Shown here: positions 3,715 through 47,898 of the stretch, in pieces
Layout of the letters: every line of letters starts with the position of its first letter
How positions within the stretch are numbered: the stretch's first letter is position 1
IMG/VR virus record: IMGVR_UViG_3300007640_000041
Coordinates: 1 to 55,795 of that record
Strand: one strand, 5' to 3'
Origin: a virus
Lineage: Duplodnaviria > Caudoviricetes
Length of the DNA stretch: 55,795 nt
Translations under genes and position numbers: made by a program
Notes under the pieces: model-generated
Database searches by the model: none
Seen by the model: the letters and a program-made list of their open reading frames with translations, nothing else
What the model was told of the DNA's origin: nothing

Positions 3715-4181
3715 TGAATCTTTCCAAGAACTTAACACTTGCTGAGGTCACTAAAAGCACTACTGCTAAGCGCCTTGGCATAGATAACACACCAGATGAT
3801 TGGGTTACAGAAAATCTTCGCCAAGTTGCGATCAACATATTTCAACCTCTTAGGGACAGCTTCGGGTGTCCTATATACGTGTCGTCAGGCTATAGGTCGC
3901 CTGAGCTCAACACTGCTATCGGTGGGAGCAGCCGCAGTCAGCATGTGGAAGGCAGAGCATTTGATCTCGACGCAGACGTATACGGACGTTGTACAAACTC
4001 TCAAATCTTCAAGTGGATTAAAGAAAATCTGGAATTTGATCAGCTCATTTGGGAGTTTGGTGATTCAGATAATCCTGATTGGGTCCACGTCTCTTATGTT
4101 TATGATGGGCTTAATCGTAAAAGGTGCCTCAAAGCTTGCAGAGACGATAACGGAAAGACGTACTACGAAGTGATTCTTTGA
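3714..4181 (+). CDS. Peptidase M15 family endolysin (Zn D-Ala-D-Ala peptidase fold)
   Basis: LSKNLTLAE start, SSGYRS..LN..IGG, SQH..G.AFD, WVHVS motifs. Confidence 0.9.
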   Translation: MNLSKNLTLAEVTKSTTAKRLGIDNTPDDWVTENLRQVAINIFQPLRDSFGCPIYVSSGYRSPELNTAIGGSSRSQHVEGRAFDLDADVYGRCTNSQIFKWIKENLEFDQLIWEFGDSDNPDWVHVSYVYDGLNRKRCLKACRDDNGKTYYEVIL

Positions 4182-4621
4182 TCATCATATTGCAGTACAA
4201 CTGGAAAAGACTCTATCTCTCTGTAAAATTTAGCAACAAGGTTCCTTCCTTTTTGTGTTAGCGCGTACCTAACTTCGTAGTTGAACTTCGTCTCCTCTCT
4301 AAAGAGGTAGTCTTCGTAGCTTCCTGAGCTTGTAAGCCTGTCGTAGAACTTATATATATACCCCTTATTTGCTAGTGGGTATACTACACGCTCAGCCATC
4401 TTCTCCTTATACATCCCAAGCTGTTTCGCGGCGAAGTTTAACGTCCAAAACTCGAAGTCGGTGCCCCACAGGAGAAATTCCATCTCACCAAAAGTCACTG
4501 GGTACTCCCTGTTCACCTTATGCTTCATGGTTTTAAGGTGCTGTAAGTAGTTAAACTCTGTGTCCTTTCGGATAGCGAAGTCTCGGAACATGTTTTTCTT
4601 AAGCTTATCCTTCTTTTTCAT
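4163..4621 (-). CDS. Winged-helix (MarR-like) DNA-binding protein
   Basis: Probable start MKKKDK; helix pattern FAAKQLGM..L.NKGYIYK and wing YALTQKG. Confidence 0.6.
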   Translation of the reverse strand: MKKKDKLKKNMFRDFAIRKDTEFNYLQHLKTMKHKVNREYPVTFGEMEFLLWGTDFEFWTLNFAAKQLGMYKEKMAERVVYPLANKGYIYKFYDRLTSSGSYEDYLFREETKFNYEVRYALTQKGRNLVAKFYREIESFPVVLQYDDQRITS

Positions 4622-4625
4622 TTCG

Positions 4626-4633
4626 TATATTTG
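4626..4633 (+). promoter_or_regulatory. Promoter core TATATTTG
   Basis: TAnnTTTG 15 nt before ATG 4649. Confidence 0.65.
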
Positions 4634-4648
4634 AGTAAAATATTCACG

Positions 4649-4933
4649 ATGGAAGAGAACACAGAGTTTTTGATGCTTGTAAAAGAACACTTTGAGGCCA
4701 TCGCTGAGCTCATACGCGAATTTGAGATGGAGGACAAGGTTATTGCTGCGTCTGTTATAGGCGTGCTAGATCCTATTGATGAAGATCATTCAGACATGAC
4801 TGCAATATACGCCATGAACATCGAAGATAGAAAAGAGCTAGAGGTAATAATAGATTTTCTTAACGACGCCTGGGACGAAAATAATCCAGATATAGATGGT
4901 CTGATAAGAGGCTTAGGCATTTCACTAAACTAA
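4649..4933 (+). CDS. Acidic hypothetical protein
   Basis: ORF 4631..4933; ATG MEENTEF lies downstream of the promoter. Confidence 0.7.
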   Translation: MEENTEFLMLVKEHFEAIAELIREFEMEDKVIAASVIGVLDPIDEDHSDMTAIYAMNIEDRKELEVIIDFLNDAWDENNPDIDGLIRGLGISLN

Positions 4934-4934
4934 A

Positions 4935-5171
4935 ATGGACGGACTTATTAGAAAAATTGTGGTCGGAAGAGACCCTAAGGACGCTATGGCCTACTTTCTT
5001 GGCATGAAGGCTGGGGAAGGCACAGTGTCTGCGATACTTCTTGACGAAGAATTTCTTGTGAGACATGGTAGAATGAGATATCTGGTGTATATTCGCAACA
5101 GCGAAGGCAATAATCTGTGGAAGTCTGTCCACGATATGCCCTGCGTAATTGAATATGACTTAAATTTCTGA
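4935..5171 (+). CDS. Conserved hypothetical phage protein
   Basis: 78 aa, IRKIVVG..KDAMAY..G; tightly coupled to GroES-like gene. Confidence 0.75.
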   Translation: MDGLIRKIVVGRDPKDAMAYFLGMKAGEGTVSAILLDEEFLVRHGRMRYLVYIRNSEGNNLWKSVHDMPCVIEYDLNF

Positions 5172-5770
5172 TGCGTACTTATAATTTCTTTGTGGTTGAG
5201 ATAGATAAGCCACTTAAGGATACTATTAAGACCGAAAGCGGCTTTGAGCTATACGTAGATTCTAGGTTTAACGAGTTTGAGCATAGAACTCAGAGCGGCA
5301 AGGTTGTGGCCGTACCATTTAAATACGATACGGGCGTAAAGGTTGGCGACGAACTATACTTTCACCACCGAGTCGTACTCCAAGAAGGTCAGGCCTTGAC
5401 TGGGTTTGAAAACCACTATCTCGTTTCTTATCACAACAAGGACGTCATTGAGTGTCAGGCTATAGCCTATAAGTGCCAGGATACTGGGGAAGTACACCCA
5501 CTATCTGCTTGGCACCTTATCGAGCAGATTCAAGAAGAGAGAGACGAGAAGTCTGATACTATCGAGCTTGTAGAACTAAAGAAGAAGCCCGTAACTAAGG
5601 GAAAGATTTGTTTCGAGACCGAGTTTACTAGGGAGCTTGGCTTGAACATCGGGGATGTCGTAGTCTTTAAGCAGAACCACGACTACGATGTAGTTGTAGA
5701 CGGGAAGCCATATGGGAGGGTTGCAACTCAAAGCCTAATGTATGTCGAGGAAGAAGTTTACAACGATTGA
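5171..5770 (+). CDS. Co-chaperonin GroES-like protein (two tandem domains)
   Basis: KTESGFEL, GKVVAVP, VKVGDELYF; second copy TKGKI..GLNIGDVVVF. Confidence 0.7.
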   Translation: MRTYNFFVVEIDKPLKDTIKTESGFELYVDSRFNEFEHRTQSGKVVAVPFKYDTGVKVGDELYFHHRVVLQEGQALTGFENHYLVSYHNKDVIECQAIAYKCQDTGEVHPLSAWHLIEQIQEERDEKSDTIELVELKKKPVTKGKICFETEFTRELGLNIGDVVVFKQNHDYDVVVDGKPYGRVATQSLMYVEEEVYND

Positions 5771-6655: not shown

Positions 6656-8772
6656 TGAACTCTCTAGTAAAAATAGAAGGGTATGAGGAGCTTGGCATCT
6701 CGATTTGCCCCAAGGGTACACAAGGTGAAGTTCTTGAACTCGGTGGGCTACTCATTGTACTTCCCGCTCAGCCTCCCGAAGAGGAAATTGAAGGATATGG
6801 ACGTCCAAACAACCTGCAGTTGTGGGAGAGAAGGTCTATGCCTGAGGAGCTGTCTAGGGTTCGTTCTATGGATGAGTGGGGGGAGATGCCAAGGGAGTTT
6901 CGACAGAAGTTTTCTCCGTATATCGAAGAGGAGTTTCGCCGTAGGCGTGAGGGCTTTTGGTTTTATAACAACGGTGTCCCTACATATATTACGGGCAGGC
7001 ACTACATGATGCTTCAATGGACGAAGCTTGATATAGGTTATCCAAATTTCTTATCTTTCCAGCGAGAGATATTTATTCACCTGGCTGCATGTGAGGCTGA
7101 TCCCCGTTGTATAGGGCAGCTTTACACCAAATGCCGAAGATCAGGTTACACCAACATCTGTTCGTCTGTAATTGTAGACGAAGCCACCCAAGTCAAAGAG
7201 AAGCTGCTTGGGATACAGTCCAAGACTGGTAAAGATGCGCAGGAGAACATCTTCATGAAGAAGGTGGTCCAGATGTTTAAGTCGTACCCGTTCTTTTTTA
7301 AACCCATTCAAGATGGTACCACTAACCCACGCATGGAGCTGGCTTTTCGCGAGCCGAGTAAGAGAATCACGAAGAAGAATAAGACTTCGCAGAAGGGCGA
7401 GGCTCTTAATACGATAATAAACTGGAAGAACACCACCAACAACGCATATGATGGTGAGAAGCTACATTTGTTGTATTTAGATGAAGCTGGAAAATGGGAA
7501 AAACCTACAGACATAAGGGACGCATGGAGGATTCAGCGGACCTGTTTGATCGTCGGAAGAAGAATCGTGGGAAAAGCGATGGTCGGAAGCACCGTAAATC
7601 CGATGGACAAGGGAGGAAAGGAGTACAAGGAGCTATGGGAGGATTCGAGTCCTATGAACAGGAACGCGAATGGTAGGACAACCAGCGGACTTTACAGACT
7701 CTTTATCCCAGCATACGAGTCACTTGAAGGATTCTTTGACGTATACGGCAATCCAGTCGTGGAAGATCCTGACAATCCTTTGGATGGCCTTGATGGTGAT
7801 AGCGTATATATTGGAGCTAAGACGTATCTCAAAAACGAGAGAGACGGATTAAAGCACGACCCAGCGGAGCTTAACGAAGTTACAAGGCAGTTCCCCTTTA
7901 CTACAGACGAAGCCTTCAGGGATAGTATCGACGGCAGCATCTTTAATGTGGGTAAAATCTACCAGCAGATAGAGTTTAACGAGGATCTATTCCCAAATCC
8001 TATCGTGCAAGGAAACTTTATGTGGAGGGGTGGAGAAAAGGATACGGAGGTAATCTTTGCTCCTGATGTAAACGGTCGATTTTTAGTTGCGTGGATGCCG
8101 CCAGAAGATCAGCGTAACGTGAAGCGGTCGGACAAGGGTAAACGTGTTGCACCATTTCCAGAAAGAGGTGTCGGCGGCGTTGACTCTTATGACCTTGACG
8201 AAACAGTAGACGGGAGAGGATCTAAGGGTGCGCTACATCTTTACAATAAGTTCAGCATGGAGGGTGCGTCAAACATGTTTGTCGTAGAGTATGCGTCGAG
8301 ACCAGATATGGCCAGAATATTCTATGAAGACTGTCTGATGGCTGCTGTGTTTTATGGGTATCCGCTGTTAATTGAAAACAATAAGTACGGTATCGCAAGA
8401 TACTTTGAATCAAGAGGTTACGACGGATACTTAATGGAAAGGCCGAAGCACCTGTTTGCCTCTAGCTCTAAGACTGTGAAGACTAAGGGTCTCCCGTCAA
8501 ACTCAGCAGATATTATCCAAGCCCACGCTCACGCGATTGAATCTTACATACACAATCACGTCGGCATAAATCAGGATAACGGTACAATGGGTAACATGTA
8601 CTTTAACAGAACCCTTGAGGACTGGATAGGATTTAAAATTAATAATAGAACTAAGTTTGACCTTACGATTAGCTCAGGGTTAGCTCTGCTTGCCGCTCAG
8701 AAGGCTCCTCCGCAAAAAGTAACCGACTTATCTAATAAGCAGTTTTTTAGGAGATTTAAGTTCAACGCGTAA
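6655..8772 (+). CDS. terL: Terminase large subunit
   Basis: Walker A-like KCRRSGYT, Walker B LYLDEAGK, GST motif, nuclease GVDSYD, LIENN, FDLTISSG; precedes portal. Confidence 0.92.
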   Translation: MNSLVKIEGYEELGISICPKGTQGEVLELGGLLIVLPAQPPEEEIEGYGRPNNLQLWERRSMPEELSRVRSMDEWGEMPREFRQKFSPYIEEEFRRRREGFWFYNNGVPTYITGRHYMMLQWTKLDIGYPNFLSFQREIFIHLAACEADPRCIGQLYTKCRRSGYTNICSSVIVDEATQVKEKLLGIQSKTGKDAQENIFMKKVVQMFKSYPFFFKPIQDGTTNPRMELAFREPSKRITKKNKTSQKGEALNTIINWKNTTNNAYDGEKLHLLYLDEAGKWEKPTDIRDAWRIQRTCLIVGRRIVGKAMVGSTVNPMDKGGKEYKELWEDSSPMNRNANGRTTSGLYRLFIPAYESLEGFFDVYGNPVVEDPDNPLDGLDGDSVYIGAKTYLKNERDGLKHDPAELNEVTRQFPFTTDEAFRDSIDGSIFNVGKIYQQIEFNEDLFPNPIVQGNFMWRGGEKDTEVIFAPDVNGRFLVAWMPPEDQRNVKRSDKGKRVAPFPERGVGGVDSYDLDETVDGRGSKGALHLYNKFSMEGASNMFVVEYASRPDMARIFYEDCLMAAVFYGYPLLIENNKYGIARYFESRGYDGYLMERPKHLFASSSKTVKTKGLPSNSADIIQAHAHAIESYIHNHVGINQDNGTMGNMYFNRTLEDWIGFKINNRTKFDLTISSGLALLAAQKAPPQKVTDLSNKQFFRRFKFNA

Positions 8773-8777
8773 ATCAC

Positions 8778-8786
8778 TATATTTGC
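8778..8786 (+). promoter_or_regulatory. Late promoter core TATATTTGC
   Basis: Recurrent 9-mer just ahead of portal. Confidence 0.75.
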
Positions 8787-8801
8787 AGGAAAAGCAAATG
8801 G

Positions 8802-11267
8802 GTGATGCACGGAAGTAATTCAAATAATAAGTTCGGATTTCCAGATCAGCTCGCTACTATGGCAGAGAAAGAGACCAAGGAGTACGGTCTCAAGTATGCC
8901 AAGGCGATTGATGCTCAATGGGGTAAGGTTTCCGAACGAGGCAGCCTGTTCAGAAAGCGTTTTGAGCAATTCGAAAAGAACAGGGCTTATGCCAACGGTA
9001 CACAAGATACCAGCATATACAAAAAGATTCTTACGTCTCTTGACCCTAATTCAAACGACGGTACCCTCCTTAACCTTGACTTCTCTCCAGTCCCAGTACT
9101 CCCTAAGTTTGCGAGAGTTGTAGCCAACAAAATTCTTTCCCTCAATCCATATCCAAATCTTGAGGCAATAGATCCAATTTCATCTACCGAAAAGGATAAG
9201 ATGAGACAGGAGATCTTGTTTGACATGGAGAATAAAGAGGATCTTAAGAAGATTGAAGAAGACACTGGGGAGCAGATGACTTCTGTGCCAGTTGATCAGC
9301 TCCCAGAAACTTCTGAGGAGGCGGAGATCTTTATGGCTTCAAACCTTAAGACTGCTGCTGAGATATCGGCTCAGATGGCTACAAACCTCACTCTTGAGTG
9401 GAATAACTTTAACGACTCTACGTATAGAAGGGTTGTTGACGATCTGGTTATATGCGGAATTGGGGTTGTTAAAAGAGAAAACGACCCGTCTCACGGCATC
9501 ATAACTAGATACGTAGACCCTGCGGCCTTTATTCACAGCTACACTGAAGATCCAGGTTTAAATGACCTTGTGTATGCTGGAGAATCCAGGAAGATCACTA
9601 TTCAAGAGTTGCGAAAGCTTGCTGGGGACGAGCTTACAGAAGACGAAATCAAAGACATTGCTGAAAAGGCTAGAAGTAAGTATTCTTACGATAGCAAGCA
9701 TATGCATCAGCACAACTACGATATTTACTCTGGAAAGAATTCGTATGGCTATGACGACTTCGTTGTTGACATCTTGGACTTTGAGTTTATTTCATCTGAC
9801 AAGATTTATTTCGAAGAAAAGGAGAATAAATACGGGAATGTAAACTTTTTCATGAAGGGCTTTGATAAGGAGCCCAAGATTAAGAACAGCGTATTTGAAA
9901 GAAAGCCTCACTGCCTTGAGGTTGGTAGCGTGTATGGCGGAATCTACATAGTTGGGTGCAATAAGGTCATCAACTATGGAAGAAAGGCAAACGTGCCTAA
10001 AAATATGTACGACATTTCAAGAGCAACACTCTCTTATTCGTGCGTAGCCACGAACATGAGAAACATGATGCCTAAGTCAATGATCGACAGCACCATAAGC
10101 TTTGCCGATCAGATTCAGCTTACTCATCTTAAGATTCAGCAAGCTATCGCCAAGGCTAAGCCTGATGGGTTGATTATTGATATCGAGGCCCTTGAAAATG
10201 TTCAGCTCGGAAAGGGTGGTGAGCTTCAGCCCTTGGAGCTTCACGACATCTACGAGCAGACTGGCGTCTTCTACTACAGAAGCAAGAATGCAGACGGCTC
10301 TGCTGGAGCTCCTCCGATCAGAGAGATCGGAAATAGCATCCGAAACATCAATGAGATGATAGCTCTTTACAACCATTACATGCGTATGATTCGCGATGTG
10401 ACTGGTGTTAACGAGCAGATGGACGGGACGACGCCTAAGGGTGACGCTCTTGTCGGCGTTCAGCAGATTGCAATACAGACTGGAAATAACGCTATTTACG
10501 ACATCACCAATGCGTCTGCAATCCTCTACAAAAAGGTTTGTCAGGACATCGTAAAGTGCCTTCAGATCATACACCCAGAAAGCATTTTGTTTGCTGTCTA
10601 CGAAAAAGCTCTTGGAAGGTTTAACATGCAGACTTTATCTGAGTTTAGAGAGCTTCCGATGTATAATTTTGGCGTAATCGTAGAGAAGGATATGGAGGAG
10701 AAGGACAGACAGTTCCTTGAGCAAAACATTCAAATTTCATTGTCTCAAAAAGAGATAGACCTTGAGGATGCTATGGCTGTAAGGCAGCTTAGAGACGTCA
10801 ATCAGGCCGAAAAGGTTCTGATGATACGTCGTAAGAAGAAACAAGAAGCCGCTCAGAAAGCAGCTATGCAGCAGCAGCAAGCCGCTGCTCAGGCTCAGAT
10901 GCAGCAAATTCAAGCGCAGATGCAGGCTAAGCAGCAAGAATATCAGATGATGATGCAGGCCAAAGTATCTGAGATCGGAGTTAAGATGAAAGCTGAAATG
11001 CAGCTTGAACAAATGCGGTTCCAACATGAGCGAGAGCTCGCTATGATTAAGGCTCAGGTTGGCCAGTTTGACAAGCAATCTGACGTCGAGACGCGCAAAG
11101 AAATTGAGCGCATGAAAGACGACAGAAAAGATGAAAGAGTTAAGAAACAAGCTGTCGAGCAAAGCAAGCTTATATCTCAAAGACAAGGTCAGAGAGGAGA
11201 GCTTAAAAACGAAGCAGAAGAATTTGATCTGGGCCAAGCCCTCGCAAACCAAGCAATGAATAGATAA
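8802..11267 (+). CDS. Portal protein
   Basis: 821 aa after TerL; DL.I.G.G..K motif, IRDVTGVNE..DG, long Q-rich C-terminal coil as in P22/crAss-type portals. Confidence 0.85.
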   Translation: MMHGSNSNNKFGFPDQLATMAEKETKEYGLKYAKAIDAQWGKVSERGSLFRKRFEQFEKNRAYANGTQDTSIYKKILTSLDPNSNDGTLLNLDFSPVPVLPKFARVVANKILSLNPYPNLEAIDPISSTEKDKMRQEILFDMENKEDLKKIEEDTGEQMTSVPVDQLPETSEEAEIFMASNLKTAAEISAQMATNLTLEWNNFNDSTYRRVVDDLVICGIGVVKRENDPSHGIITRYVDPAAFIHSYTEDPGLNDLVYAGESRKITIQELRKLAGDELTEDEIKDIAEKARSKYSYDSKHMHQHNYDIYSGKNSYGYDDFVVDILDFEFISSDKIYFEEKENKYGNVNFFMKGFDKEPKIKNSVFERKPHCLEVGSVYGGIYIVGCNKVINYGRKANVPKNMYDISRATLSYSCVATNMRNMMPKSMIDSTISFADQIQLTHLKIQQAIAKAKPDGLIIDIEALENVQLGKGGELQPLELHDIYEQTGVFYYRSKNADGSAGAPPIREIGNSIRNINEMIALYNHYMRMIRDVTGVNEQMDGTTPKGDALVGVQQIAIQTGNNAIYDITNASAILYKKVCQDIVKCLQIIHPESILFAVYEKALGRFNMQTLSEFRELPMYNFGVIVEKDMEEKDRQFLEQNIQISLSQKEIDLEDAMAVRQLRDVNQAEKVLMIRRKKKQEAAQKAAMQQQQAAAQAQMQQIQAQMQAKQQEYQMMMQAKVSEIGVKMKAEMQLEQMRFQHERELAMIKAQVGQFDKQSDVETRKEIERMKDDRKDERVKKQAVEQSKLISQRQGQRGELKNEAEEFDLGQALANQAMNR

Positions 11268-42900: not shown

Positions 42901-43257
42901 ATCGGAACACCTTCATTTAGCAGGGGAAAGGCCAAGAAAGCATACGAGTCTGGTAAGAAGTACCAGTTTGTCGAGGATGGGGTTGACTTCAAAATGAAGC
43001 TCAATGCAGAGCAGGTGAATGAAGCCCTTAGACTGGCTGGATCTCTCAGATATCAGGAGTGCCTTGCGCTTGTTGAGTCAGATAAATACAAGCAAATGAC
43101 TGATGAAGAAAGAATGACCGAGTTCGAATCGATTAATTCTAAGTATAACGGACTTGTGGAGTTTGACCCTCAGGGCAATTTCCTCCCACACACGCAATAC
43201 TTGATGGATTTGTTCGAAAAAGAATACATAGAAAGAAAACAGAATGGAGAGCTCTAA
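33946..43257 (+). CDS. Giant multidomain virion (cargo/ejection, polyvalent-type) protein, 3103 aa
   Basis: End of tail module; hydrophobic segments, coiled coils, zincin-like and HhH-like motifs, C-terminal FQND/PYVRTPANL region like podoviral internal virion proteins. Confidence 0.7.
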   Translation: MNDQYIQLIEDYLAKGVAHPDIIENLGNDVSDDAAKFAADYLKKKDQPEQGGGSESTLDPSLSESAGADQMLDPFGRPITVGLKGVDIVAEKELSQEMVGKYGLEAAANDYTTRADRFNGLESLEQQLAFFKDEKNVRYFPEVYKEVEKQGRTLALNKDLDDAETLADVEQAFEDAGFSSEEYADWLEKTKAENPFVIKSLQAEEEYRARFGAPAKGEYDLSEIYNQLSEKRNKLIAEKEKVVQLWQQKFKEGYFGTDLRFLTAQIETLKESASEALGQMDYALEEMKRERDEDGKKLKDSLPEDSYSIYETYNNAYSVAISKEVEQLIKNAKGDQYDPAETQYVLSQMMRGDMTLNQAIQEYYPDLVYGESGVEFTAQQIRNRVQEEASNAAREQFSSIGKPEDATRIERDLKGILSVDFNDDGYVAPMDIFDSYLAKIPLNSRGFTVGGLLRNFSPGTVNAVRAVYEPIEKAVTATAMMVGDAGGGAWQFVEQLGNNLLIDMDGADEFTDYMAEWKREFEEKGTYFVPKPGGRLGFESTVNQAAYSLPFSIIQFALKRNPYVASAMLMTGLSHDLHARNKDNDWYKAMSETERLVWLAGHTGSEFGFEYLGNRLLFKSGSNLVGPSTGRSFLGESLYKGGQFAKGTAGEIGTELLTLFSGNALDNMMLTDYGVAAKPIFDATEIMNTIQVAGVTSGVIQGPVAGMAYAQNLRDVKDLRLGIDEEISKLRDPNLTEEQSLDIIKGIMAKQSKLAAKFTDMTEYGQWMKENFSDQYDAMMAHSGQIEAILKELKDPNTTQARVSVLKSKLATAMNNEYQASFVGLNKYLGEQAKTMPEDRLKARIQSKSGELDELKAEKAELEQRKRDGEDVSNAIALVDDKITHVSGALTQMQEAKSALEAAQEEGATKEEVAAGFKAANYVTKSEAQEQMLRLAKFAGKEISSETLQATESLNVTEDSVYMLDKDGNVIDMFVHADKKSELGVPVVAKAKDASEQMWAMVQHGYVVVGKNEETGEVALVYDKSGDLLKAFPGIKDSTKGIDHQLIVAKNASVILSKATGNAHKHIKIDSLAGMVAEEVDINGLSEEMQLFYRLNKSAIDTKAALIAANKAERKESDLAKAGNADAKGKAKDRKANKIVELARSKFGLNVMVGNDAQLFNASKRTDYMSGAIIGGFYVRGTNNIYINENASAKDVIEEIFHAKIANEIFSDKRRRARFQNELSSILMRDPFMRALLDVKRSEYEGLYRGRKDAEQMIEEELLAEAISVYVANSDKVDAGTVSGMINYLKSFLGDTEIDVTKDNLEVIMSKLETTLSSGRSLRIKRNEDQEREENSEGTEMMSAYSGKNSFLHKVPVSIKVVQHSDWGESRVRNEQTKQFEDYNHFRAWYNKMSGNGSLSGSIEVKMSYTDADGNVKTLNPPKPYPGREATRPVNAWASRYQRELNEQEKVNKIIDDRVSVLQDQLDILMSSGMDRTAALDLLGWDGRNRNWGARPTQAMVDKAVEATSNYMLDIEGGSPESVVMYSTYNDIVDRMNEVLASNDKETFDIGKYRSDDPKYRESVNKALMDLTDDPKTVKEFQESILGSSAPISNAEIQNFLTAVSDKLHGGKRRDGMSAIHQDRVVDVLEVPFRRLMETERGADFVNFFSDFREGLPNHFQFLADEHGLDRDDLLSAKDLYLGIVAVLSNGNEANINIQLADYVFASYMSGDKASFELAMHQILNVGSYKGISGRPEIQRTKAHQDGIRSLVDMFESDVDLVSHFTSKGSKNRKKPRGRSVEKQKEVVAMDMFGNKIGAFMANLLGDESVLAQDSHFVAEMNRARGIKSTYDINALKDAFASCYNLKEEVEKFYGIKLRKSYMRDDMEALGREVFKRGTKFTRAGKDRFKGFKGWEKEVFKWYTKDVKNRLRRTPKNMDERHLNYTIAKKLGDRLGISVAAVQQLMFYDNHLTQQLFGRGVAAEDVTFADVLDMQLPSSFEMAIPNEAALEEVKARDAYFRDQVVEKDLSGSAPVARDSFSMQELIDADELEVVQISDRAKDPTIGVEDVVTLKRARGGGRFASIGSGIERANAVVLSDVAFPQSKEMSAVGTIDSFANGKDVGSIDITNGIELEFHNGGWYSGGNRVIGAEKAVMTGDTVFAMGEITYSDPELFAYQQAEFTEEEAERFADDPFTADSIIDLMETEGLSFDQAEALFYDRVDMSMSDDEVMFSSQIRGTAARVVDSANFSGDLREMVKNNPENYFDRASFTDIKDAMDHMTTPQLLSYMRADKLGELKGDENYGPLATITLINRYAAAGDNESAAALVADLAATGTSVGRLLRQFAELKTSTPESMASTILHMAERGGKTVNDRTKKQVEEQSRIVFELHRRAEELYARGQKGEDVWDEYKKAIDLLAKEEKQLDIIANKIIERSWGELIRTTIQGNLLTPMSQATNVIANLSNFIPKTMVDVTAFPMEKLLEKTFPDWYRKSKGIDRKMTFSSYLYGMMRFGGGTMEALGEIARGQRNSDLTEWRISRSLMPIHSLMAFWGSDLPEAKSKVADVNQRAKLLFQGTFGMPAESMFRLLGLGDTPFRRYAEGLELSQIADARGLTGKERTQFLRFPPSDVVEQARKRGLEFTFQNDTSMSQVAEYTIGALSRGFGKPFKNVRGFDGEDFFNTIIRMNVPYVRTPANLLEETLTYASPAIAMARFGKHLLDGDARGASENLAKGMIGQSVTMASMYLIANGLISGPPDDDKAVRNLQYDTFPPNCINVSGLKRLLAGEDPAYQAGDEFRNYQKLGILGSVMGAAAVATTKQGAEEVIKNPFGPTELFKRTFGFDNVATLSYMMDQSFLQGLNSTLDVLSISNPDEAEKAWSQWLEGMFKSISAVPLPNTLSALNRTQRTYMPDMRSASMAERLGNTVRDRTFSTGSLPIRYNWKGEPIKQTPDGSGPAAYQLFDVTKAREGSADPVSMEALRIYQETGEAIEVLNTPYFASSVFRHIGTPSFSRGKAKKAYESGKKYQFVEDGVDFKMKLNAEQVNEALRLAGSLRYQECLALVESDKYKQMTDEERMTEFESINSKYNGLVEFDPQGNFLPHTQYLMDLFEKEYIERKQNGEL

Positions 43258-43681
43258 AAAGATAAAAGACACCGCCCTTGGCGGATGGCTGAAGCAGAAA
43301 GCGCCAGGCATCCTCGACACTGTCGGCGACCTGCTGCCAGATCAGGGCGCGCTCGGTATTGTCAAGAACCTACTTGACAAAGAGCCAGGCATAGATCCCA
43401 TCGAAGCCAAGGCTAAGATCGACGCAGAGATTGCATTCCAGAACAACGTAACTGAGCGCTGGAAGGCAGACATGGGTAGCGACATCAAGCTCGCTAAATA
43501 TATACGACCTGTAACTTTGATATCACTTGTAGTAATTTTTATTGCAACCATGATTGCGGATTCTATTGAAAATCTGGCATTTAACGTTAAAGATAGTTAT
43601 GTATCTTTGCTTGAAATACTAATGTTGACATCATTCGGAGCATACTTTGCTGGAAGAACCATAGAAAAAACAAGACGATGA
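43244..43681 (+). CDS. Holin (3TM-type)
   Basis: RW.ADM.SD..L.K.IRP followed by hydrophobic helices and GAYFAGRT.EK. Confidence 0.75.
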   Translation: MESSKKIKDTALGGWLKQKAPGILDTVGDLLPDQGALGIVKNLLDKEPGIDPIEAKAKIDAEIAFQNNVTERWKADMGSDIKLAKYIRPVTLISLVVIFIATMIADSIENLAFNVKDSYVSLLEILMLTSFGAYFAGRTIEKTRR

Positions 43682-43890
43682 TCGAAGAATACCTCTCTCA
43701 TTTTGAATTCTTAGTGGTTGCGGGCACTCTCGTAGGCGGGTGGATAAAGTTCCAGGCAGATTACAACAAGCTCAGTTCGCGCGTATATACGCTTGAGGCT
43801 GATAATAGGGAGTTTAAGGATGATGTTAAGCAACTCCTAAAAGACATACAGGAGATAAAGCTACTGCTTGCTAAAAACAAAGTAGAGTAA
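43678..43890 (+). CDS. Small membrane-anchored coiled-coil protein (lysis accessory?)
   Basis: 70 aa, N-terminal hydrophobic helix plus coil. Confidence 0.65.
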   Translation: MIEEYLSHFEFLVVAGTLVGGWIKFQADYNKLSSRVYTLEADNREFKDDVKQLLKDIQEIKLLLAKNKVE

Positions 43891-43914
43891 AAAAGGGGCC
43901 GAAGCCCCTTTCTT
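43889..43914. terminator. Bidirectional terminator between convergent late and early blocks
   Basis: AAAAAAGGGGC-CGAA-GCCCCTTTCTT. Confidence 0.85.
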
Positions 43915-45868
43915 ATTGTACTACTTTTATTATATGTTTGATTCCTTCTACCTCTATTTCTGCGAGGTAAATACCGAATGGGTTAGGTCCAGGCCTCACT
44001 TCTTTTCCGTCTGAGCTATAATATTTCGGATTTAGCCCAAGCTCTTCGAGCTGTCTCACGGTAGGAGGAGGGAGCTCGCCTCCGCTACAGTCGGTTCCGT
44101 ACACAGAGATAAACGTCAGGAAGTCGTCGAGGTCTACGTCGTTGTCTGAGTCTGTGTCGCACACGCAAACTGCACCATCCTTACCGAGCTCCATACAGAT
44201 CTGCAAGAAGTCCTGCAGGTCTACGGCACCGTCTCCGTTAAAGTCTCCGACACAGTCAAGTGGTACAATTTCGGAATCGTAATCCGCTTCTGTACACAAC
44301 ACGTATTCGTGTTCAGACAATCCGCCGTGGACGTTCCCGAGGTTCCATGTAGTGGTGGTGCTACCAGTAGCAGGGTTCTCCGAATCACCATACACCTCGT
44401 ACAAAGTTTCGGTAGCTCCGCCCTCTCCATACTCCATCCAGATATGAACGCCCGTCACGATGTCTGCGTACGTCGTATCAAACACCCACTGCCCCCAGTC
44501 GTATGCGTCGTGTCTAAAGAAGCCAGCGTAACAGCCTTCTGAGAGACAGATCTCGTCGTGAGTAAACAGAGGTTCGTTGGTGAGTCCGTTATCCCATGAG
44601 TCGTACGTCGTGAGGCTACCCCAGTGACCGCCTTTGGCATACACACCGCTTGGGTAGATGGGATCTCCGCAGCACAATCCCTCTTTGTAGAACTTCCATT
44701 GCTCAGACTCTGGCCAGATGTCGTGCTGGATGTCGATGTTCATTACCGCAAGGTTCTTGGGGGCGTGCTCGAAGAACGTCATATCGTTGAGGCTGTTCTC
44801 GTCCTCGCTCCAGTAGATCTCAACAACGCCGTCGTACTCCTGGTTGAACTCTCCGTAGATAGGATCACCAACCACAGTGATGATAGTATCAGATGGTACG
44901 TCTACGGTCGTGGTCCAGATTCCATTCATCATCGTAACCGTGACGTCCACACCGAAGGCGTCGTTAGCGGTCCAGTTGGCGAGTCTCACTTCTGGGTAGA
45001 AGTCTCTGTCGCAATCGAATGCGTTGTCGATAGACAAGATGGCTACGTCCTTGGAATTAGGGTCGATGCAACTGCCTGATTGCCAGACCATTGCCCTTCC
45101 TCCGTTCACCAAGGCTGAGTGCATACGCTCGATCTGACCCTGCGTAAAGTGGTCACGGCACTGACCCGTGTAATCCATGTAGTTCGTGACATCTGCGTCT
45201 TCACAAAATGGTTCTGCTGTACAAGACTCATTGGTGTATGTTGCTGGGGTGTCGCACACCAAGTCGCCTTCCGTGGCGCAGTCATCTTCGGAACAGCCTC
45301 CACCCTCAAACGTATGGTACAGGCCGCAGTAGTGACCGAGCTCGTGCGTCATCATCTTGCTTGCCGCATGCATGCCCTCGATGTACACGCCGTCGTATGG
45401 GGTGATGGCGTCGTTGTTGATCCAACTAAACCCTGCCGTAGGTCCTGGGATAGAGGGGAGGATAAAGATGTTACATGCGTCTCCACGCGTGTTCTGTGAG
45501 GCGTAGCTACCGTAGTCGTACGTCTCATTCGTTCCGAACCAGTACTCGTATGTGAGAGTATCTGGATTGATCATCCACTCTTGGTAGAAGAACTCAGAGT
45601 GCTTGCACGGCACGATATCCGTACCTTCGAATCCGTCTACGATCTGATCCCAGATCTCATCAACATCGTCGGGCGAAACAGCCTCGTTGATGTTGTGCAA
45701 TGCAATAGGCAGGAACTTAGTAAAAACATCTTGATTACGATTTGCCTGCCGCAAACCCATGATGCGCTCGAAGTCGTGATCGACGATAGAGCATTCGTTT
45801 CCACAGACATGCTGAGCACTGACTGTCAACGAAATAAACGAAAGGAGTAGTATGGATAAGTGTCTCAT
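43913..45868 (-). CDS. Secreted M43 (pappalysin/ulilysin-like) zinc metalloprotease with Ca-binding repeats and T9SS-like CTD
   Basis: Signal peptide MRHLSILLLSFISLTVSA; HELGHYCGLYHTF; GDLVCDTP; Met-turn NYMDY; DFNGDGAVDLQD and DTDSDNDVDLDD; C-terminal YxxxGKEV..GIYL..KVVQ. Confidence 0.88.
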   Translation of the reverse strand: MRHLSILLLSFISLTVSAQHVCGNECSIVDHDFERIMGLRQANRNQDVFTKFLPIALHNINEAVSPDDVDEIWDQIVDGFEGTDIVPCKHSEFFYQEWMINPDTLTYEYWFGTNETYDYGSYASQNTRGDACNIFILPSIPGPTAGFSWINNDAITPYDGVYIEGMHAASKMMTHELGHYCGLYHTFEGGGCSEDDCATEGDLVCDTPATYTNESCTAEPFCEDADVTNYMDYTGQCRDHFTQGQIERMHSALVNGGRAMVWQSGSCIDPNSKDVAILSIDNAFDCDRDFYPEVRLANWTANDAFGVDVTVTMMNGIWTTTVDVPSDTIITVVGDPIYGEFNQEYDGVVEIYWSEDENSLNDMTFFEHAPKNLAVMNIDIQHDIWPESEQWKFYKEGLCCGDPIYPSGVYAKGGHWGSLTTYDSWDNGLTNEPLFTHDEICLSEGCYAGFFRHDAYDWGQWVFDTTYADIVTGVHIWMEYGEGGATETLYEVYGDSENPATGSTTTTWNLGNVHGGLSEHEYVLCTEADYDSEIVPLDCVGDFNGDGAVDLQDFLQICMELGKDGAVCVCDTDSDNDVDLDDFLTFISVYGTDCSGGELPPPTVRQLEELGLNPKYYSSDGKEVRPGPNPFGIYLAEIEVEGIKHIIKVVQ

Positions 45869-45872
45869 ACCG

Positions 45873-45880
45873 CAAAGGTA
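45873..45880 (-). promoter_or_regulatory. Promoter core TACCTTTG
   Basis: TAnnTTTG, 4 nt before protease ATG. Confidence 0.7.
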
Positions 45881-45885
45881 TGTAT

Positions 45886-45921
45886 AAAAAAAAGAGGGGA
45901 GATTATGTCTAACCTCCCCTC
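45886..45921 (-). terminator. Intrinsic terminator
   Basis: GAGGGGAG...CTCCCCTC followed by T8 on - strand. Confidence 0.8.
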
Positions 45922-46005
45922 CAGTAGCGAAGTTCCACAGCAATTATCCCTGTGTAACGGTGCCAAGATAATAAATCTGAGACACCCAACATTGATCCAT
46001 CCTCT

Positions 46006-47898
46006 TCATCGGACGGGGCATGCGCCTGTTTCACAATCTGAGATCTCGATGTCGTCCATGTTCAGGTGCTCCAACGAAGTAATCGGAGTAACCGACTCAG
46101 ACATTTCAAGCCACTTCTCGTGCGTGATCTCCTCCATCGGAGCCTGATCGAACCCGTGCTCGTTATGCAGCAAAAAGCTGACACTCTTTACGTTATCGTA
46201 GTTTACATCAAGCCAAGCTTTAATTTCTTCAAGCTCATGCTTTCTGTAATAAATGGTTACAGACACAGAGTTGTCTGACCATTCTGCCTGCAGGCGCTTG
46301 ATAACTTCGAGCTGATCGACAGCCGTCATGTCGTCAGCAAACGTGGTATTCTCTGGGAAACTGCAAGGGAAGCTCACAACAACTGTGGAGTGGTCTTCAG
46401 TCCCGTCGAAGTTACGTACGTACTCTACGTGATACCCATTGTCTCGGCACACCTTGACCAATTCGCTATCTGCAGCCATTCTAATTCTCCGAATGTAGTA
46501 CTGGCTGTATCCTGGATGTGCTCCTGGTGTAACGCCAGCAAGTAGAGACAGCGTTCCACTGGGCTTAACTGTCGTAAGCTTGATAGATGTTGGAAATCCG
46601 CAAATTCGAGAGTATTCTTGGTCATATGCTCTAAGGTGATTATACACGGATGGAAGCCAATTTCGCTGCTCTTCTGTCGCCTGAAGGTATCCAGTCACGC
46701 CGATACCCATTCGCATGTTTTTGTGAACGATATCTTCAGTTTCGGGAACAGCGCATTTGATCGCGAGACTATGTTTATTGATGCGGTATAGCAACGTAGC
46801 AACATCCTTGAGCTCTCTCTCCGACTCAATGTTCGGAAGGTAGATCTCCGCCAAGCAGCAGGTCTCAAATGGAGCAAGACTCTGCTCCGCACAGGGGTTG
46901 TACCCCATGACGTTTGGGTCTGGGTAATTAGTTTCACCTGTCCTTCCCATGCGGCGGGAAGCTGTGAGGTTGATGAGTCCATAAGGCTCTCCGTTTCCAT
47001 TGTATCCTTCCCAAAATTCTTCTGGGAGCGTGCTAACATCATCGCACGCCACGCTGTTGTTTGACATGGCTCTCCAGTTGGGGATACCTCCGAGGTCCCA
47101 CCGCTTTGCCCGCAAGTATTCGATGTCGTCATGGTCTCCGATTGCGATTTGTGCAGACCGACGGACGTTCCCAGCCACTACGATCTTACCGATAATGTTC
47201 ATGATGTCCAGACAGTCTACAGGCTTGAGTCTGTTTCCGCTGCGCTCGTTGAGGATGCGGTTTATTTCCTGCATTCCCCAGATCAAGTCGTTAGGGCCTG
47301 AGGCGGTTCCTCCAAAGCCTTTGATAGGTGATCCTGCGGGGCGCACGAGAGACGTGTCGTAGCTAAACCCTTGTCCAGTGAAGAAAGAGGCCTCCAGTAC
47401 GCGCTTCAGGAGCTCTGTCCAGCCCTCACGAGAGTCTGGAACAATGAAGTCTGCGCCAGCATCCTTAACGTGCTTGATGGTCACTTTCTTTTTAACCTTC
47501 GGAAGTTGATAAACATGCTCTCTTTGGATGTTGTAGCCGACTCCGCTTCCTAGCATAAGCATTTCGAACGCCCACGTGAATGGTCGGATTGGCTCATCTA
47601 CGACGACGAAAGCACAGTTCTGCAAAGATGGCAGGCCAAGCTTGTCCACCGTTTTGGTTCCAAGCTGCCACAGGAATCGCCCAGCAACGGTTCCCTTGAG
47701 TTGCATCATCATACGCTTGATGTCTTTCTGGTCGTGCTCGTTGAACTCGCACTTAAGTTGCTTATTGCACGCCTCGATGACGCGATCCACCGTCTCCTCC
47801 CATTCCTCCGTGCGGTCTTTAATGGGGCGCGCATAGGTACGCTTGTAAGTAGCGTAGCCGACCTCGCCCCAGGGTATAAACTCTGGGTTATAGTCCAT
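46006..47898 (-). CDS. nrdJ: Class II (B12-dependent) ribonucleotide reductase, monomeric type
   Basis: YKRTYAR, AGR.LW, LQNC, G.GVG, GNVRRSA, NPCAEQ, CCLAE, TVKPSGT; no NrdB partner. Confidence 0.9.
   Translation of the reverse strand: MDYNPEFIPWGEVGYATYKRTYARPIKDRTEEWEETVDRVIEACNKQLKCEFNEHDQKDIKRMMMQLKGTVAGRFLWQLGTKTVDKLGLPSLQNCAFVVVDEPIRPFTWAFEMLMLGSGVGYNIQREHVYQLPKVKKKVTIKHVKDAGADFIVPDSREGWTELLKRVLEASFFTGQGFSYDTSLVRPAGSPIKGFGGTASGPNDLIWGMQEINRILNERSGNRLKPVDCLDIMNIIGKIVVAGNVRRSAQIAIGDHDDIEYLRAKRWDLGGIPNWRAMSNNSVACDDVSTLPEEFWEGYNGNGEPYGLINLTASRRMGRTGETNYPDPNVMGYNPCAEQSLAPFETCCLAEIYLPNIESERELKDVATLLYRINKHSLAIKCAVPETEDIVHKNMRMGIGVTGYLQATEEQRNWLPSVYNHLRAYDQEYSRICGFPTSIKLTTVKPSGTLSLLAGVTPGAHPGYSQYYIRRIRMAADSELVKVCRDNGYHVEYVRNFDGTEDHSTVVVSFPCSFPENTTFADDMTAVDQLEVIKRLQAEWSDNSVSVTIYYRKHELEEIKAWLDVNYDNVKSVSFLLHNEHGFDQAPMEEITHEKWLEMSESVTPITSLEHLNMDDIEISDCETGACPVR

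Follow-up and report, generated by a model that had tools for sequence, protein, structure and literature searches.

A phage of the Caudoviricetes encodes what, judging from its sequence, appears to be a real, selected and secreted M43 metalloprotease with a C-terminal tail derived from the C-terminal domains (CTDs) of type IX secretion system (T9SS) cargo, and export by the T9SS is plausible. The account that we prefer, held tentatively and at somewhat short of an even chance, is that an active M43 protease from a Flavobacteriia-phage is exported via the host T9SS by this CTD-derived tail. The window, i.e. the whole 55,795-nucleotide stretch of DNA analyzed here, is an IMG/VR record estimated to be 92% complete and codes for a terminase, a portal, virion proteins, a holin, an endolysin, an RNR and a primase-helicase, in agreement with the sequence-only reading of the protease gene as phage-encoded. 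The terminase is nearest to those of phages of Flavobacteriaceae, with the 87 related records comprising 68 from Flavobacterium, 15 from Cellulophaga, 2 from Tenacibaculum, 1 from Maribacter and 1 unnamed Caudoviricetes. From these relatives, which infect Flavobacteriaceae, we infer a host of the Flavobacteriia type.

The reading frame of the protease gene is unbroken from ATG 45868 on the minus strand (Table 1), which bears out the intact 651-aa gene recognized in the sequence-only reading; the span given there, 43913..45880, fits the gene but its end at 45880 does not, as it takes in TACCTTTG upstream of the ATG. ATG 45868 is favored over a longer form starting at TTG 45943 because the TTG frame would run through the terminator-like hairpin at 45922-45893. 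This hairpin sets the protease gene apart from the replication operon and, together with a second one on the same strand (43915-43888), corresponds to the flanking terminators claimed earlier; read on the plus strand (43892-43911), the second hairpin also lies 3' of the convergent p70 gene. Eight terminator-like hairpins were found in the scanned region versus 2.5 expected, and the homolog at locus L020 has an equivalent hairpin upstream, after which comes TATCTTTG. The pattern TAnnTTTG is the -7 promoter motif of Bacteroidota. The notion that the gene has its own promoter survives in the one match to this pattern, TACCTTTG, but not in any enrichment of the pattern in the window (43 found versus 36.4 expected, with 13 of 100 shuffles reaching 43); at locus L002 no match to the motif was found upstream of the M43 homolog. 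A sigma-70 scan upstream of the gene returned nothing, the sigma-70 model being unsuited to Bacteroidota. Contigs from four DNA runs are short fragments only, none of those listed crossing the junction between the M43 and p70 genes.

Table 1. Features of the protease gene, its product and its surroundings (positions in the window)
Feature	Position	Strand	Remarks
Holin-like gene, 145 aa	43244..43681	+	phrog_3427 holin, E 7.1e-19
p70, 70 aa	43678..43890	+	N-terminal membrane helix and coiled coil; conserved neighbor of phage M43 genes
Terminator-like hairpin	43888..43915	-	3' of protease gene
M43 metalloprotease CDS (P0001), 651 aa	43916..45868	-	Stop codon 43913-43915
CTD-like tail, residues 595-651 (57 aa)	43916..44086	-	Proposed from hhalign, library search, model and fold searches
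Dockerin-fold module, residues 536-594	44087..44263	-	Two predicted Ca-loop-plus-helix repeats
Middle region, residues 266-535	44264..45073	-	Two predicted beta-sandwich domains, no named family
M43 catalytic region, residues 19-265	45074..45814	-	Zinc motif, Met-turn, PF05572
Signal peptide, residues 1-18	45815..45868	-	Predicted cleavage between VSA and Q, leaving N-terminal Gln; read from sequence
TACCTTTG, match to TAnnTTTG	45873..45880	-	5 nt before ATG; single match
Terminator-like hairpin and T-run	45893..45922	-	13 pairs, 6 of them G-C, then TTTTTTTATA; 3' of RNR gene

The domain architecture that had been read from the translation is recovered throughout. The N-terminus, MRHLSILLLSFISLTVSA followed by Q, is signal-like by inspection, as expected of the Sec signal peptide claimed earlier, and the succession of M-K/R, a hydrophobic stretch and an (A/G/S)-Q junction recurs in 29 of the 30 family members, the thirtieth being a truncated gene call; the Q-rule applied to this junction follows the available text of PMC5837995. 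A lipoprotein reading was rejected, there being no lipobox. The claimed HExxHxxGxxH signature and Met-turn correspond to H175-E-L-G-H-Y-C-G-L-Y-H185 (45314-45346) and N-Y-M231-D-Y233 (M231-D-Y233 at 45170-45178), respectively, and Peptidase_M43 (PF05572) matches residues 154-253 with an E-value of 2.8e-18 (66.8 bits versus a cut-off of 23). All 30 sequences share residues H175, E176, G178, H179, H185, M231 and Y233, a CGxxC directly after the signal peptide (C22 and C26) is conserved, and 21 cysteines are invariant across the family. The best solved relative by sequence is ulilysin (E 1.8e-6). The full-length AF2 model has a mean pLDDT of 64.8, with residues 182-265 below 50 and low confidence at 13-49, and Foldseek searches with this low-confidence model give PAPP-A2 (E 3.1e-6), adamalysins and mirolysin (E 1.9e-3) as best matches. 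We take the protein for an M43 metzincin, proposed to be an active zinc endopeptidase.

In the middle region AF2 places strands across residues 276-395 and 409-526, at a pLDDT of mostly about 60-89 with brief dips below 50. One relative, at locus L067, has a CARDB match above the Pfam cut-off (28.2 bits), and two more have weaker CARDB matches under it; Pfam returned nothing meaningful on residues 257-543 of the window protein, the match to Prismane being sub-threshold, and ESM Atlas searches with its middle region listed unnamed clusters only. The two dockerin- or EF-hand-like repeats claimed earlier are found as DFNGDGAVDLQD and DTDSDNDVDLDD. Dockerin_1 (PF00404) scores 10.5-12.7 bits in the window protein, under its cut-off of 22.9, and EF-hand is likewise sub-threshold; the Dockerin_1 cut-off is passed by the relatives P0093 (24.0 bits) and L055 (28.1 bits). 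The model of the module, with two helices, points to a dockerin fold, matching 2y3n_B over 60 of 60 residues (Z 8.8, rmsd 2.2) and at least ten further dockerin structure entries at Z 4.4-6.9.

The tail runs from a short helix (TVRQLEEL) through the strands YYS, (KEV), GIYLAEIE and IKHIIKVV, and the terminus YYSSDGKEV...GIYLAEIEV...IKVVQ, in which the sequence-only reading saw a T9SS address, is present in the translation. Five of its residues (G621, V624, G632, Y634 and K648) do not vary among the 30 sequences, and its mean pairwise identity of 0.55 is close to the 0.57 of the middle domains. The curated CTD models, suggested at the time as a check, do not recognize it, an outcome that the sequence-only reading had itself named as refuting: PF18962 and TIGR04183 gave no match to the whole protein at E<=1 or to its last 128 and 68 residues at E<=10, PF18962 is carried by 0 of 29 close relatives in precomputed annotation, and among 12 divergent phage M43s it is present sub-threshold only, in 2. 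A custom HMM built from 33 genuine CTDs also gave no match to the window tail at E<=10. A T9SS type B or type C sorting domain was rejected, with no NCBIfam match.

Profile-profile comparison does recover a relation. The family tail aligned by hhalign with 33 PF18962-bearing ends (84%, P 7.7e-6, score 29.9; reversed alignment 8.8, 40 column shuffles all <=18.9), and a 39-sequence tail alignment matched genuine CTDs over 65 columns (96%, P 4.7e-9; reversed 8.9, 40 shuffles at most 10.7), and none of 22 windows slid along the remainder of the protein scored above 13.7. The alignment pairs YYSSDGKEV with 'iy..G.lv' and GIYLAE...KVVQ with 'G.Y......K.vv'; the CTD surface motifs are defined, in the available text of PMC11285876, for Porphyromonas gingivalis and differ between species. 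A profile of 25 tails retrieved 629 proteins at E<=1e-3 among 1.84 billion, the match sitting almost always at the extreme C-terminus of the target, and the partner domains in the 106 scanned (BspA-type LRR in 13; Peptidase_C10 with I69, sialidase, M6 and CBM26) are of kinds usual in secreted proteins. Canonical YPNP-type CTD ends are the best matches in two Bacteroidota genomes, and the TIGR04183 cut-off is passed by the retrieved proteins P0106 (profile E 8.8e-8) and P0170 (E 3.0e-5). TIGR04183 is absent in 30 of 34 matches, however, and any PF18962 is found in 5 of 106, above the cut-off in 1; therefore most such tails are unvalidated as T9SS signals. A single-sequence search with residues 590-651 recovered family members only (9 proteins). 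Profile-profile comparison and library search support the view that the tail is related to T9SS type A CTDs.

Predicted structure supports this relation weakly. The AF2 C-terminal model (pLDDT 83) has a helix at 81-86 and strands at 92-94, 110-117 and 120-127 (model numbering), to which the full-length model adds one two-residue strand. Among 48,161 chains the best match of the predicted tail is the CTD of HBP35 (Z 4.7, rmsd 2.5, 51 residues aligned); the same search also lists NucA, RgpB, PorZ and 8gl8_D, a chain of the T9SS extended-translocon complex, and a narrower second search lists the CTDs of mirolase and RemA, all within a range (Z 2.6-4.7) where a match may reflect a common arrangement. 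With the C-terminal model, neither Foldseek against the PDB nor BFVD gave a match at E<=0.001; look-alikes in the ESM Atlas are viral clusters with PF18962, with or without Dockerin_1 (scores 0.84-0.87), and serve as a lead only. The seven-stranded 3+4 sandwich, called essential in the available text of PMC11285876, is not seen in the tail model, which has one sheet of three to four strands and a helix. The T9SS addressing proposed from the sequence is supported in part, by the homology to CTDs and, weakly, by the HBP35 match, but not by the curated models or the seven-stranded fold.

The protease family comprises 29 full-length relatives at 41-95% identity, P0002 being the 95%-identical one, and occurs on viral or unnamed metagenome contigs only. 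The catalytic-domain tree (FastTree, midpoint root) shows clades of viral and unnamed metagenome sequences, from which 9 of the 10 genome-derived rows and every one of the 21 rows with PF18962 are separate. Recent capture from a host was set aside, as a scan of 185,579 species genomes found no full-length cellular homolog (12 loci, catalytic core only), although a scan by patterns may miss some. No M43 homolog was found in 50,697 phage records except for one weak match. The viral contig L060 carries, besides an M43, a canonical PF18962 protein. Among the listed population variants in the window gene 18 of 20 are synonymous, and the gene appears to be under selection.

The surroundings of these genes show a recurrent pattern. 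In the window, p70 starts within the stop of the holin-like gene, the product of which matches holin-annotated genes in deposited phage records with its C-terminal half; p70 itself has no PHROG match, a sub-threshold match to XhlA and no match in the 50,697 phage records, and its charged C-terminal part is probably cytoplasmic by the positive-inside rule. Of 80 viral loci, 46 have a homolog of the window's p70, holin or endolysin no more than 2 kb from M43, and in 24 loci the start of p70 and the stop of M43 share 4 nt. In the phage lineages 2 and 3, M43 lies within the late operon directly before p70 and endolysin, in lineage 2 also 3' of a portal gene and a DUF6712 gene, and altogether three unrelated lineages show linkage of M43 to p70, holin and endolysin. 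The order of replication genes, M43, p70 and holin recurs on two independent viral contigs, L002 and L023, and L020 has replication genes, M43 and holin with no p70 homolog detected. Sixteen assessable loci are without a nearby lysis-gene homolog, and in 8 of the 9 examined of these M43 sits among chaperonin, queuosine, glycosyltransferase or terminase genes. Sequence divergence is far greater in M43 than in p70, and M43 has been exchanged independently of p70: between L004 and L030, for example, p70 is 81% identical and M43 34%. The gene appears to be a mobile accessory cassette that has passed between at least three unrelated phage lineages, in most cases settling within the lysis module or next to it. 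This placement of the family had been overlooked in the sequence-only reading.

Because M43 adjoins holin and endolysin genes, lysis could alone free a periplasmic enzyme. The protein could then be a Sec-exported periplasmic protease released by holin/endolysin lysis, as is other exported cargo encoded beside lysis cassettes, with the T9SS uninvolved, its tail being a small structural or binding module merely descended from a CTD; we regard this as unlikely overall, albeit with an appreciable share of the probability. The proximity to lysis genes in 46 of the loci, the 4-nt overlaps with p70 and the late-operon position in lineages 2 and 3 favor such release, as do the failure of the curated CTD models on the tail and the lack of a second sheet in its model. 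Yet the tail, placed at the very C-terminus, is conserved and gives specific matches to profiles of genuine CTDs, a purely structural remnant would not be expected to retain exactly the two motifs implicated in T9SS function, and the 16 loci with no lysis-gene homolog nearby also speak against this reading.

A related but quite improbable possibility is that the protease is itself a lysis effector, which cuts ties between outer membrane and wall or outer-membrane proteins as a third lysis step in phages without recognizable spanins, by analogy with LysB of mycobacteriophages. The linkage in three unrelated lineages agrees with this, the Sec signal would put the enzyme in the right compartment, and none of the 36 window ORFs scanned matches a spanin-annotated PHROG. 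The M43 protein itself lacks spanin architecture, having a cleavable signal peptide and neither a lipobox nor a membrane anchor, and is like a spanin solely in its position beside lysis genes. Against an effector role, the cultured relatives lyse without M43, several loci have it away from lysis genes, and a constitutively exported active protease would escape gating by the holin; moreover, its variability relative to p70 and its independent swapping are more in keeping with an enzyme directed at variable targets outside the cell than with a core step of lysis. It is very improbable that the dockerin instead docks the protease after lysis on a cohesin-like or Ig-like virion domain, such that particles carry it through proteinaceous layers: the well-supported predicted dockerin fold (Z 8.8) and the position of M43 after portal and DUF6712 genes in lineage 2 are in its favor, but the signal peptide parts the protein from cytoplasmic virion assembly and the tail profile matches no virion protein in the window or the 80 loci. 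That the gene is a functionless passenger, or the contig chimeric at this locus, has a negligible probability and is largely refuted already, since, for all that it is missing from cultured relatives, its frame is intact, its catalytic residues invariant and its listed variants mostly synonymous, its gene order recurs in L002 and L023 and, without detected p70, in L020, a contig from another metagenome bridges 45527-46487, and its GC3 of 0.61 is in line with the neighboring minus-strand genes.

Under the preferred reading of T9SS export, the protein would be exported by Sec and cut by signal peptidase I before Gln19, and would fold in the periplasm with many disulfides, as the 21 invariant cysteines suggest, and with Ca-binding dockerin loops. 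The host T9SS would then take it across the outer membrane, the address being a shortened C-terminal domain descended from type A CTDs that would retain the strand3-loop-strand4 element 'DG(K/R)xV' and the last two strands ending in K-x-x, both of them motifs shown to matter for T9SS function. More speculatively, it may cleave proteins outside or on the cell around lysis, most likely host surface or matrix proteins, so that progeny could escape debris, particles or biofilm without re-adsorbing. Receptor shaving, matrix digestion and feeding of the infected cell, the roles put forward in the sequence-only reading, are likewise conjectural. A bolder and improbable version is that in phages of Bacteroidota the T9SS address has been pared down to a minimal 'half-sandwich' some 57 residues long, in which only the sheet with the two recognition motifs is kept and the dockerin acts as a buttress, and that these phages send the fast-evolving protease out via the secretion pore of the host minutes before lysis as a receptor-destroying or envelope-opening factor. 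This would explain the wiring of M43 to holin and endolysin genes in unrelated lineages; the protease would then do for Bacteroidota phages what a neuraminidase, or spanins and LysB, do elsewhere.

Should the short tail prove functional, a T9SS signal can be much smaller than the curated models capture, and this would flag many C-terminal ends missed by current annotation, namely the class of 'YYDLxGRRV..GIYIVNGKKVxxK' ends on BspA-LRR, C10 and sialidase proteins. If it does not, the gene is a moron-type secreted protease of modest interest. A family restricted to viral and metagenome sequences, tied to lysis genes, swapped between lineages and evolving faster than its neighbors would offer a handle on how Flavobacteriia phages exit from cells, particles and biofilms, and also on how they handle surface receptors, which in Flavobacterium have been linked to the T9SS and gliding in the available texts of 10.1101/2020.10.02.323337 and PMC9804748.

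Among known systems, the lower pappalysins (M43B; ulilysin, mirolysin and cytophagalysin) share HExxHxxGxxH, the Met-turn and a Tyr two residues on, as defined, together with the 'tyrosine switch', in the available text of PMC11674741, and the conserved C22 of the phage protein falls close to where ulilysin and mirolysin have their cysteine-switch Cys23, though model confidence for a possible prosegment is low there (residues 13-49). They differ from the protease described here in that the latter is phage-encoded and falls in viral/metagenome clades, and in that it has two predicted beta-sandwiches, a dockerin and a 57-aa tail where they have successive Ig domains and a complete CTD. Like T9SS type A CTDs (structures of RgpB, HBP35, PorZ, PorU and mirolase), the tail stands at the extreme C-terminus of a signal-peptide protein, shows profile-profile homology to them (96%) and has a putative strand3-loop-strand4 'D-x-G-K/R-x-V' and last strands 'G-I-Y-...' and '...K-V-V-x'; its best structural match, HBP35, has the shortest solved CTD (58-59 residues). 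Unlike them, it scores below every curated cut-off, falls some 20 residues short of the 67-88 aa that CTDs of cleaved cargo usually have (PMC11285876, section 2.1), has PPPT and a helix in place of the N-terminal 'YPNP' strand, and is modeled as a single sheet rather than a 3+4 sandwich.

As to genomic position, the phage M43 genes resemble Stx or LysB genes, in that the gene for an exported or envelope-acting protein stands beside holin and endolysin and is co-transcribed with them, but there is no sequence relation and the M43 protein is without a toxin-like or esterase domain. Such exported or envelope-acting cargo of lysis cassettes is exemplified by the Stx genes upstream of S-R-Rz in lambdoid phages and by LysB in mycobacteriophages. 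Similar in concept are the T9SS cargo genes described for the 'Cryophage' (Bellas et al. 2020, PMC7468147) and the T9SS sorting-domain ORFs of crAss-BACON contigs (PMC6949934), whose authors propose hijack of the host T9SS; with these published reports, as far as their available text goes, the claim of an undescribed system made for the present gene was too strong. These are likewise phage genes for secreted-type proteins with a T9SS tag that vary between phage variants, but according to the same texts their products are glycoside hydrolases, PA14 or BACON proteins with a recognized type A sorting domain, whereas the present gene, with its linkage to lysis genes, encodes an M43 protease that ends in a non-canonical tail. 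What is new is a protease family confined to viral and unnamed metagenome contigs and its recurrent placement with lysis genes.

The minus-strand gene P0001 encodes an M43 metzincin with a signal peptide, a predicted dockerin fold and a C-terminal tail related to the sorting domain (CTD) of type IX secretion system (T9SS) cargo. Each sequence feature named in the sequence-only reading is present in the translation: a signal-like N-terminus (MRHLSILLLSFISLTVSA, directly before a Q), the zinc motif HELGHYCGLYH (H175-H185), the Met-turn NYMDY (M231 and Y233), two Ca-loop repeats (DFNGDGAVDLQD and DTDSDNDVDLDD) and the C-terminal end YYSSDGKEV...GIYLAEIEV...IKVVQ. Pfam Peptidase_M43 matches at 66.8 bits (cut-off 23), the NCBIfam metzincin matches are all sub-threshold, and the closest solved protein by sequence is ulilysin (E 1.8e-6). 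The full-length model is poor (pLDDT 64.8, residues 182-265 below 50), and the best fold matches of this low-confidence structure are PAPP-A2 (E 3.1e-6), adamalysins and mirolysin. A conserved CGxxC motif roughly coincides in position with Cys23, the cysteine switch of ulilysin and mirolysin as described in PMC11674741, and P0001 may thus be synthesised as a zymogen.

The phage itself encodes this gene, which is intact and shows purifying selection. The window carries genes for a terminase, a portal protein, several virion proteins, an endolysin, a holin, a ribonucleotide reductase, a primase-helicase and an exonuclease, and the record, of 55,795 bases, is estimated by IMG/VR to be 92% complete; it is a phage, as had been claimed. 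Terminases 42-49% identical to the one in the window occur in 87 deposited phages (68 of Flavobacterium, 15 of Cellulophaga, two of Tenacibaculum, one of Maribacter and one unnamed), and a Flavobacteriia-type host is therefore likely. The M43 gene sits at the junction between the structural and lysis genes, read rightward, and the replication genes, read leftward, with a GC3 (0.61) in line with the adjoining minus-strand genes. As proposed, it is an intact frame with terminator-like hairpins on both sides; its ATG is preferred over a longer TTG start at 45943 because the latter would cross one of these hairpins.

Features of the window around and beyond the M43 gene
Feature	Position	Strand	Remark
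M43 protease P0001	ATG 45868 to stop 43913-43915	-	open frame, 651 aa
CGxxC motif, conserved	45790-45805 (residues 22-26)	-	directly after signal peptide
Terminator-like hairpin, one side of M43 gene	45922-45893	-	hairpin scan
Terminator-like hairpin, other side of M43 gene	43915-43888	-	hairpin scan
Holin	43244-43681	+	rightward structural/lysis block
p70	43678-43890	+	rightward structural/lysis block
Giant ORF, 2316 aa	13132-20082	+	tailspike-like piece, phrog_4636
Giant ORF, 1583 aa	27148-31899	+	virion-protein N-terminus
Giant ORF, 3103 aa	33946-43257	+	no PHROG match at all
GroES-like gene, phage	5171-5770	+	phrog_13932

Its own promoter is a less secure part of that proposal. A TAnnTTTG-like motif is the Bacteroidota-type -7 promoter element, and a single TACCTTTG lies 5 nt upstream of the ATG as a putative promoter; however, TAnnTTTG occurs 43 times in the window against 36.4 expected, which is no enrichment, so that this copy is consistent with a promoter, yet no evidence for one. 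Elsewhere on the plus strand the exact octamer TATATTTG occurs at 1719, 8778, 20891, 21244, 22129, 31911 and 33921, a few to about 28 nt ahead of seven ORF starts (1746, 8802, 20926, 21257, 22153, the 23222 block, 31923, 33946); it resembles a late promoter common to these ORFs, or else a Bacteroidota-type -7 element.

Metagenome protein sets hold 29 full-length relatives of P0001 at 41-95% identity. All 30 aligned sequences share the zinc ligands, the Met-turn, 21 cysteines and, in the tail, G621, V624, G632, Y634 and K648, and mean pairwise identity is 0.66 in the catalytic part, 0.57 in the middle, 0.63 in the dockerin, 0.55 in the tail and 0.29 in the signal peptide. The M43 stretch recurs with many variants in four DNA runs of one study, where synonymous changes make up 18 of the 20 best-supported intragenic differences listed, these 20 being a subset, with 577 more across the 5.8-kb stretch. 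A chimeric contig at this locus, which would have undone the reading, is largely contradicted by two independent viral contigs (L002 and L023) that keep the order replication genes, M43, p70 and holin, and by one foreign contig that bridges 45527-46487; a further locus, L020, has replication genes, M43 and holin, with no p70 detected.

A model of the C-terminal 128 residues was built from a 22-sequence alignment (mean pLDDT 83.2). The two repeats, earlier called dockerin/EF-hand-like, are borne out by a predicted dockerin fold of two helices, best matched by 2y3n_B (Z 8.8, rmsd 2.2, 60/60 residues aligned); the Pfam dockerin and EF-hand models reach P0001 below threshold only. The tail proper (the last 57 residues, 595-651) is modelled as a short helix (TVRQLEEL) and then three strands, to which the full-length model adds one of two residues. 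Its best structural match, in a Foldseek-seeded comparison and in an unbiased one over 48,161 chains, is the HBP35 CTD (Z 4.7, rmsd 2.5, 51 aligned), and further T9SS CTDs match at Z 2.6-3.2, namely NucA and RemA bound in T9SS complexes, RgpB, PorZ and mirolase, values which are low, may reflect a common arrangement, and are taken as agreement rather than proof. The pertinent passages of PMC11285876 give the HBP35 CTD core as 58-59 residues and cleaved cargo CTDs as 67-88, the sheets of the CTD sandwich as 4-3-6-7 and 5-2-1, and the functionally relevant motifs as the strand3-strand4 loop and the C-terminus. Set against a full CTD so described, the phage tail appears in the model to have lost one sheet and kept the one on which both motifs lie; it is therefore called CTD-derived here, and not filed under TIGR04183 or PF18962.

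The curated models are silent: PF18962 (Por_Secre_tail) and TIGR04183, suggested earlier as a check on the tail, report nothing at E<=1 in the whole of P0001 or at E<=10 in its last 128 or 68 residues. PF18962 is found in none of the 29 close relatives, below threshold in two of 12 divergent phage M43s (15.2 and 13.3 bits vs 27; none in the other 10), and in 33 of 91 matches, these being distant Bacteroidota-type M43s; nor does our own HMM from 33 genuine CTDs reach the window tail at E<=10. Profile-profile comparison nevertheless favours relationship. With hhalign, the family tail aligns to the 33 CTDs at 84% probability (P 7.7e-6, score 29.9; reversed alignment 8.8, best of 40 column shuffles 18.9), and 39 tails from several phage M43 subfamilies do so at 96% over 65 columns (P 4.7e-9, score 47.2; reversed 8.9, 40 shuffles at most 10.7), while the rest of P0001, in 22 sliding windows, scores 6.2-13.7. 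The claim of a T9SS CTD at the C-terminus thus stands as to kinship, with weak agreement from predicted structure, but not as to recognition by the curated models or a complete sandwich, only one sheet being modelled.

A 25-sequence tail profile retrieved 629 proteins at E<=1e-3 from 1.84 billion representative proteins, and nearly all among the matches listed end at or a few residues from the target's last residue. The 106 of 149 stored matches that are 90-2000 aa long were scanned with Pfam: six are M43s, 13 carry BspA-type LRR_5, and other partners are Peptidase_C10 with I69, sialidase, M6, CBM26, Omp28 and Big_2. PF18962 occurs in five of these 106, passing its cut-off in one; TIGR04183, sought with NCBIfam in 34, passes in two (P0106 and P0170), is sub-threshold in two and absent from 30. 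Canonical YPNP-type CTD ends are the only tail-profile matches in two of four Bacteroidota genomes. In the ESM Atlas, residues 536-651 resemble viral clusters that bear PF18962, alone or together with Dockerin_1; scores of 0.84-0.87 make these a lead only.

Among the tail-profile matches P0107-P0240 there is a large class of ends of the form YYDLxGRRV..P..GIYIVNGKKVxxK, borne by BspA-LRR, Peptidase_C10 with I69, sialidase and other secreted-type proteins; the 30 scanned gave no match to PF18962 or TIGR04183. A viral locus with a short-tailed M43 (L060) also encodes, at 1739-4771, a protein of 1010 aa whose Por_Secre_tail is canonical (34.6 bits vs a cut-off of 27), and thus a fully recognisable T9SS tag occurs on a contig classed as viral. 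Tandem M43 genes at 8545-9720 and 9756-11105 of the viral contig L048, and likewise in L059, end in a dockerin module (first) and a short tail (second).

By its distribution, the P0001 family is viral. M43 relatives are encoded by 235 of 264 pattern-matched IMG/VR stretches (80 loci kept), and a cellular scan, itself pattern-dependent, gave 12 loci in 185,579 species genomes, all matching the catalytic core only. In a FastTree of 97 catalytic domains (midpoint root, a quick method) viral and unnamed metagenome rows alone make up the 26-row clade (support 100) that contains the window, and all 21 PF18962-bearing rows cluster with nine of ten genome rows. Phage backbones of at least three unrelated kinds carry the gene: that of the window, a podovirus lineage; a small-genome lineage (head protease, capsid, portal, DUF6712, M43, p70, endolysin); and a siphovirus (tape measure, 1149-aa protein, 62-aa ORF, M43, p70, methyltransferase, amidase). 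Among 50,697 deposited phage records there is no M43 homologue except one weak match.

Of the 62 loci that reach at least 300 nt past the M43 stop, 35 have a homologue of p70, the convergent neighbour of the window gene; it lies within 120 nt of that stop in 27 of them, and its start overlaps the stop by 4 nt in 24. A p70, holin or endolysin homologue lies within 2 kb of M43 in 46 of the 80 loci; 18 of the other 34 end at or just past the gene, and in nine examined of the remaining 16 an amidase adjoins M43 once, the other eight having it beside GroEL/GroES, QueD/QueE, glycosyltransferase or terminase genes (GroEL/GroES in L051, L056 and L079). M43 is therefore often, but not always, linked to lysis genes. 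It varies more than p70 and is exchanged independently of it, as in L004 vs L030 (p70 81% identical, M43 34%) and L023 vs L017 (M43 79%, p70 42%). The p70 homologues, of 66-71 aa, have an N-terminal membrane helix and a conserved coiled coil (RVYxLExD..E.K....I.E.K.LLAK), with starts overlapping the stop of either holin or M43; they have no PHROG or Pfam match and none was found in the 50,697 deposited phages. p70 may be a small holin or lysis regulator.

We propose that P0001 would be exported by Sec and cleaved before Gln; PMC5837995 mentions a Bacteroidetes Q-rule for signal-peptide cleavage, and PMC10367356 notes phage proteins that obey it. It would then undergo disulfide folding in the periplasm, pass through the host T9SS and, at around the moment of lysis, act on surface or matrix proteins of the host. 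Passage through the T9SS is held tentatively, as a step about which we are nearly evenly divided. The main rival, a periplasmic enzyme set free by lysis alone, is rather unlikely, and a direct part for M43 in opening the outer membrane is improbable, fitting poorly with the gene's rapid turnover and its lack in cultured relatives.

Phage-encoded cargo for this route is not in itself an undescribed system, as had been suggested: a Cryophage case is already in print, termed 'a unique occurrence' in the part of PMC7468147 that treats it, and PMC6949934 notes T9SS sorting-domain ORFs, while CTD-bearing bacterial M43s appear in PMC11674741. A literature search, supplements excluded, found no publications on phage-encoded M43 or pappalysin genes. 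Against these known phage cargo and bacterial M43-CTDs, three features therefore look undescribed, namely a viral-only M43 family, the shortening of its tail and the association of the gene with lysis cassettes.
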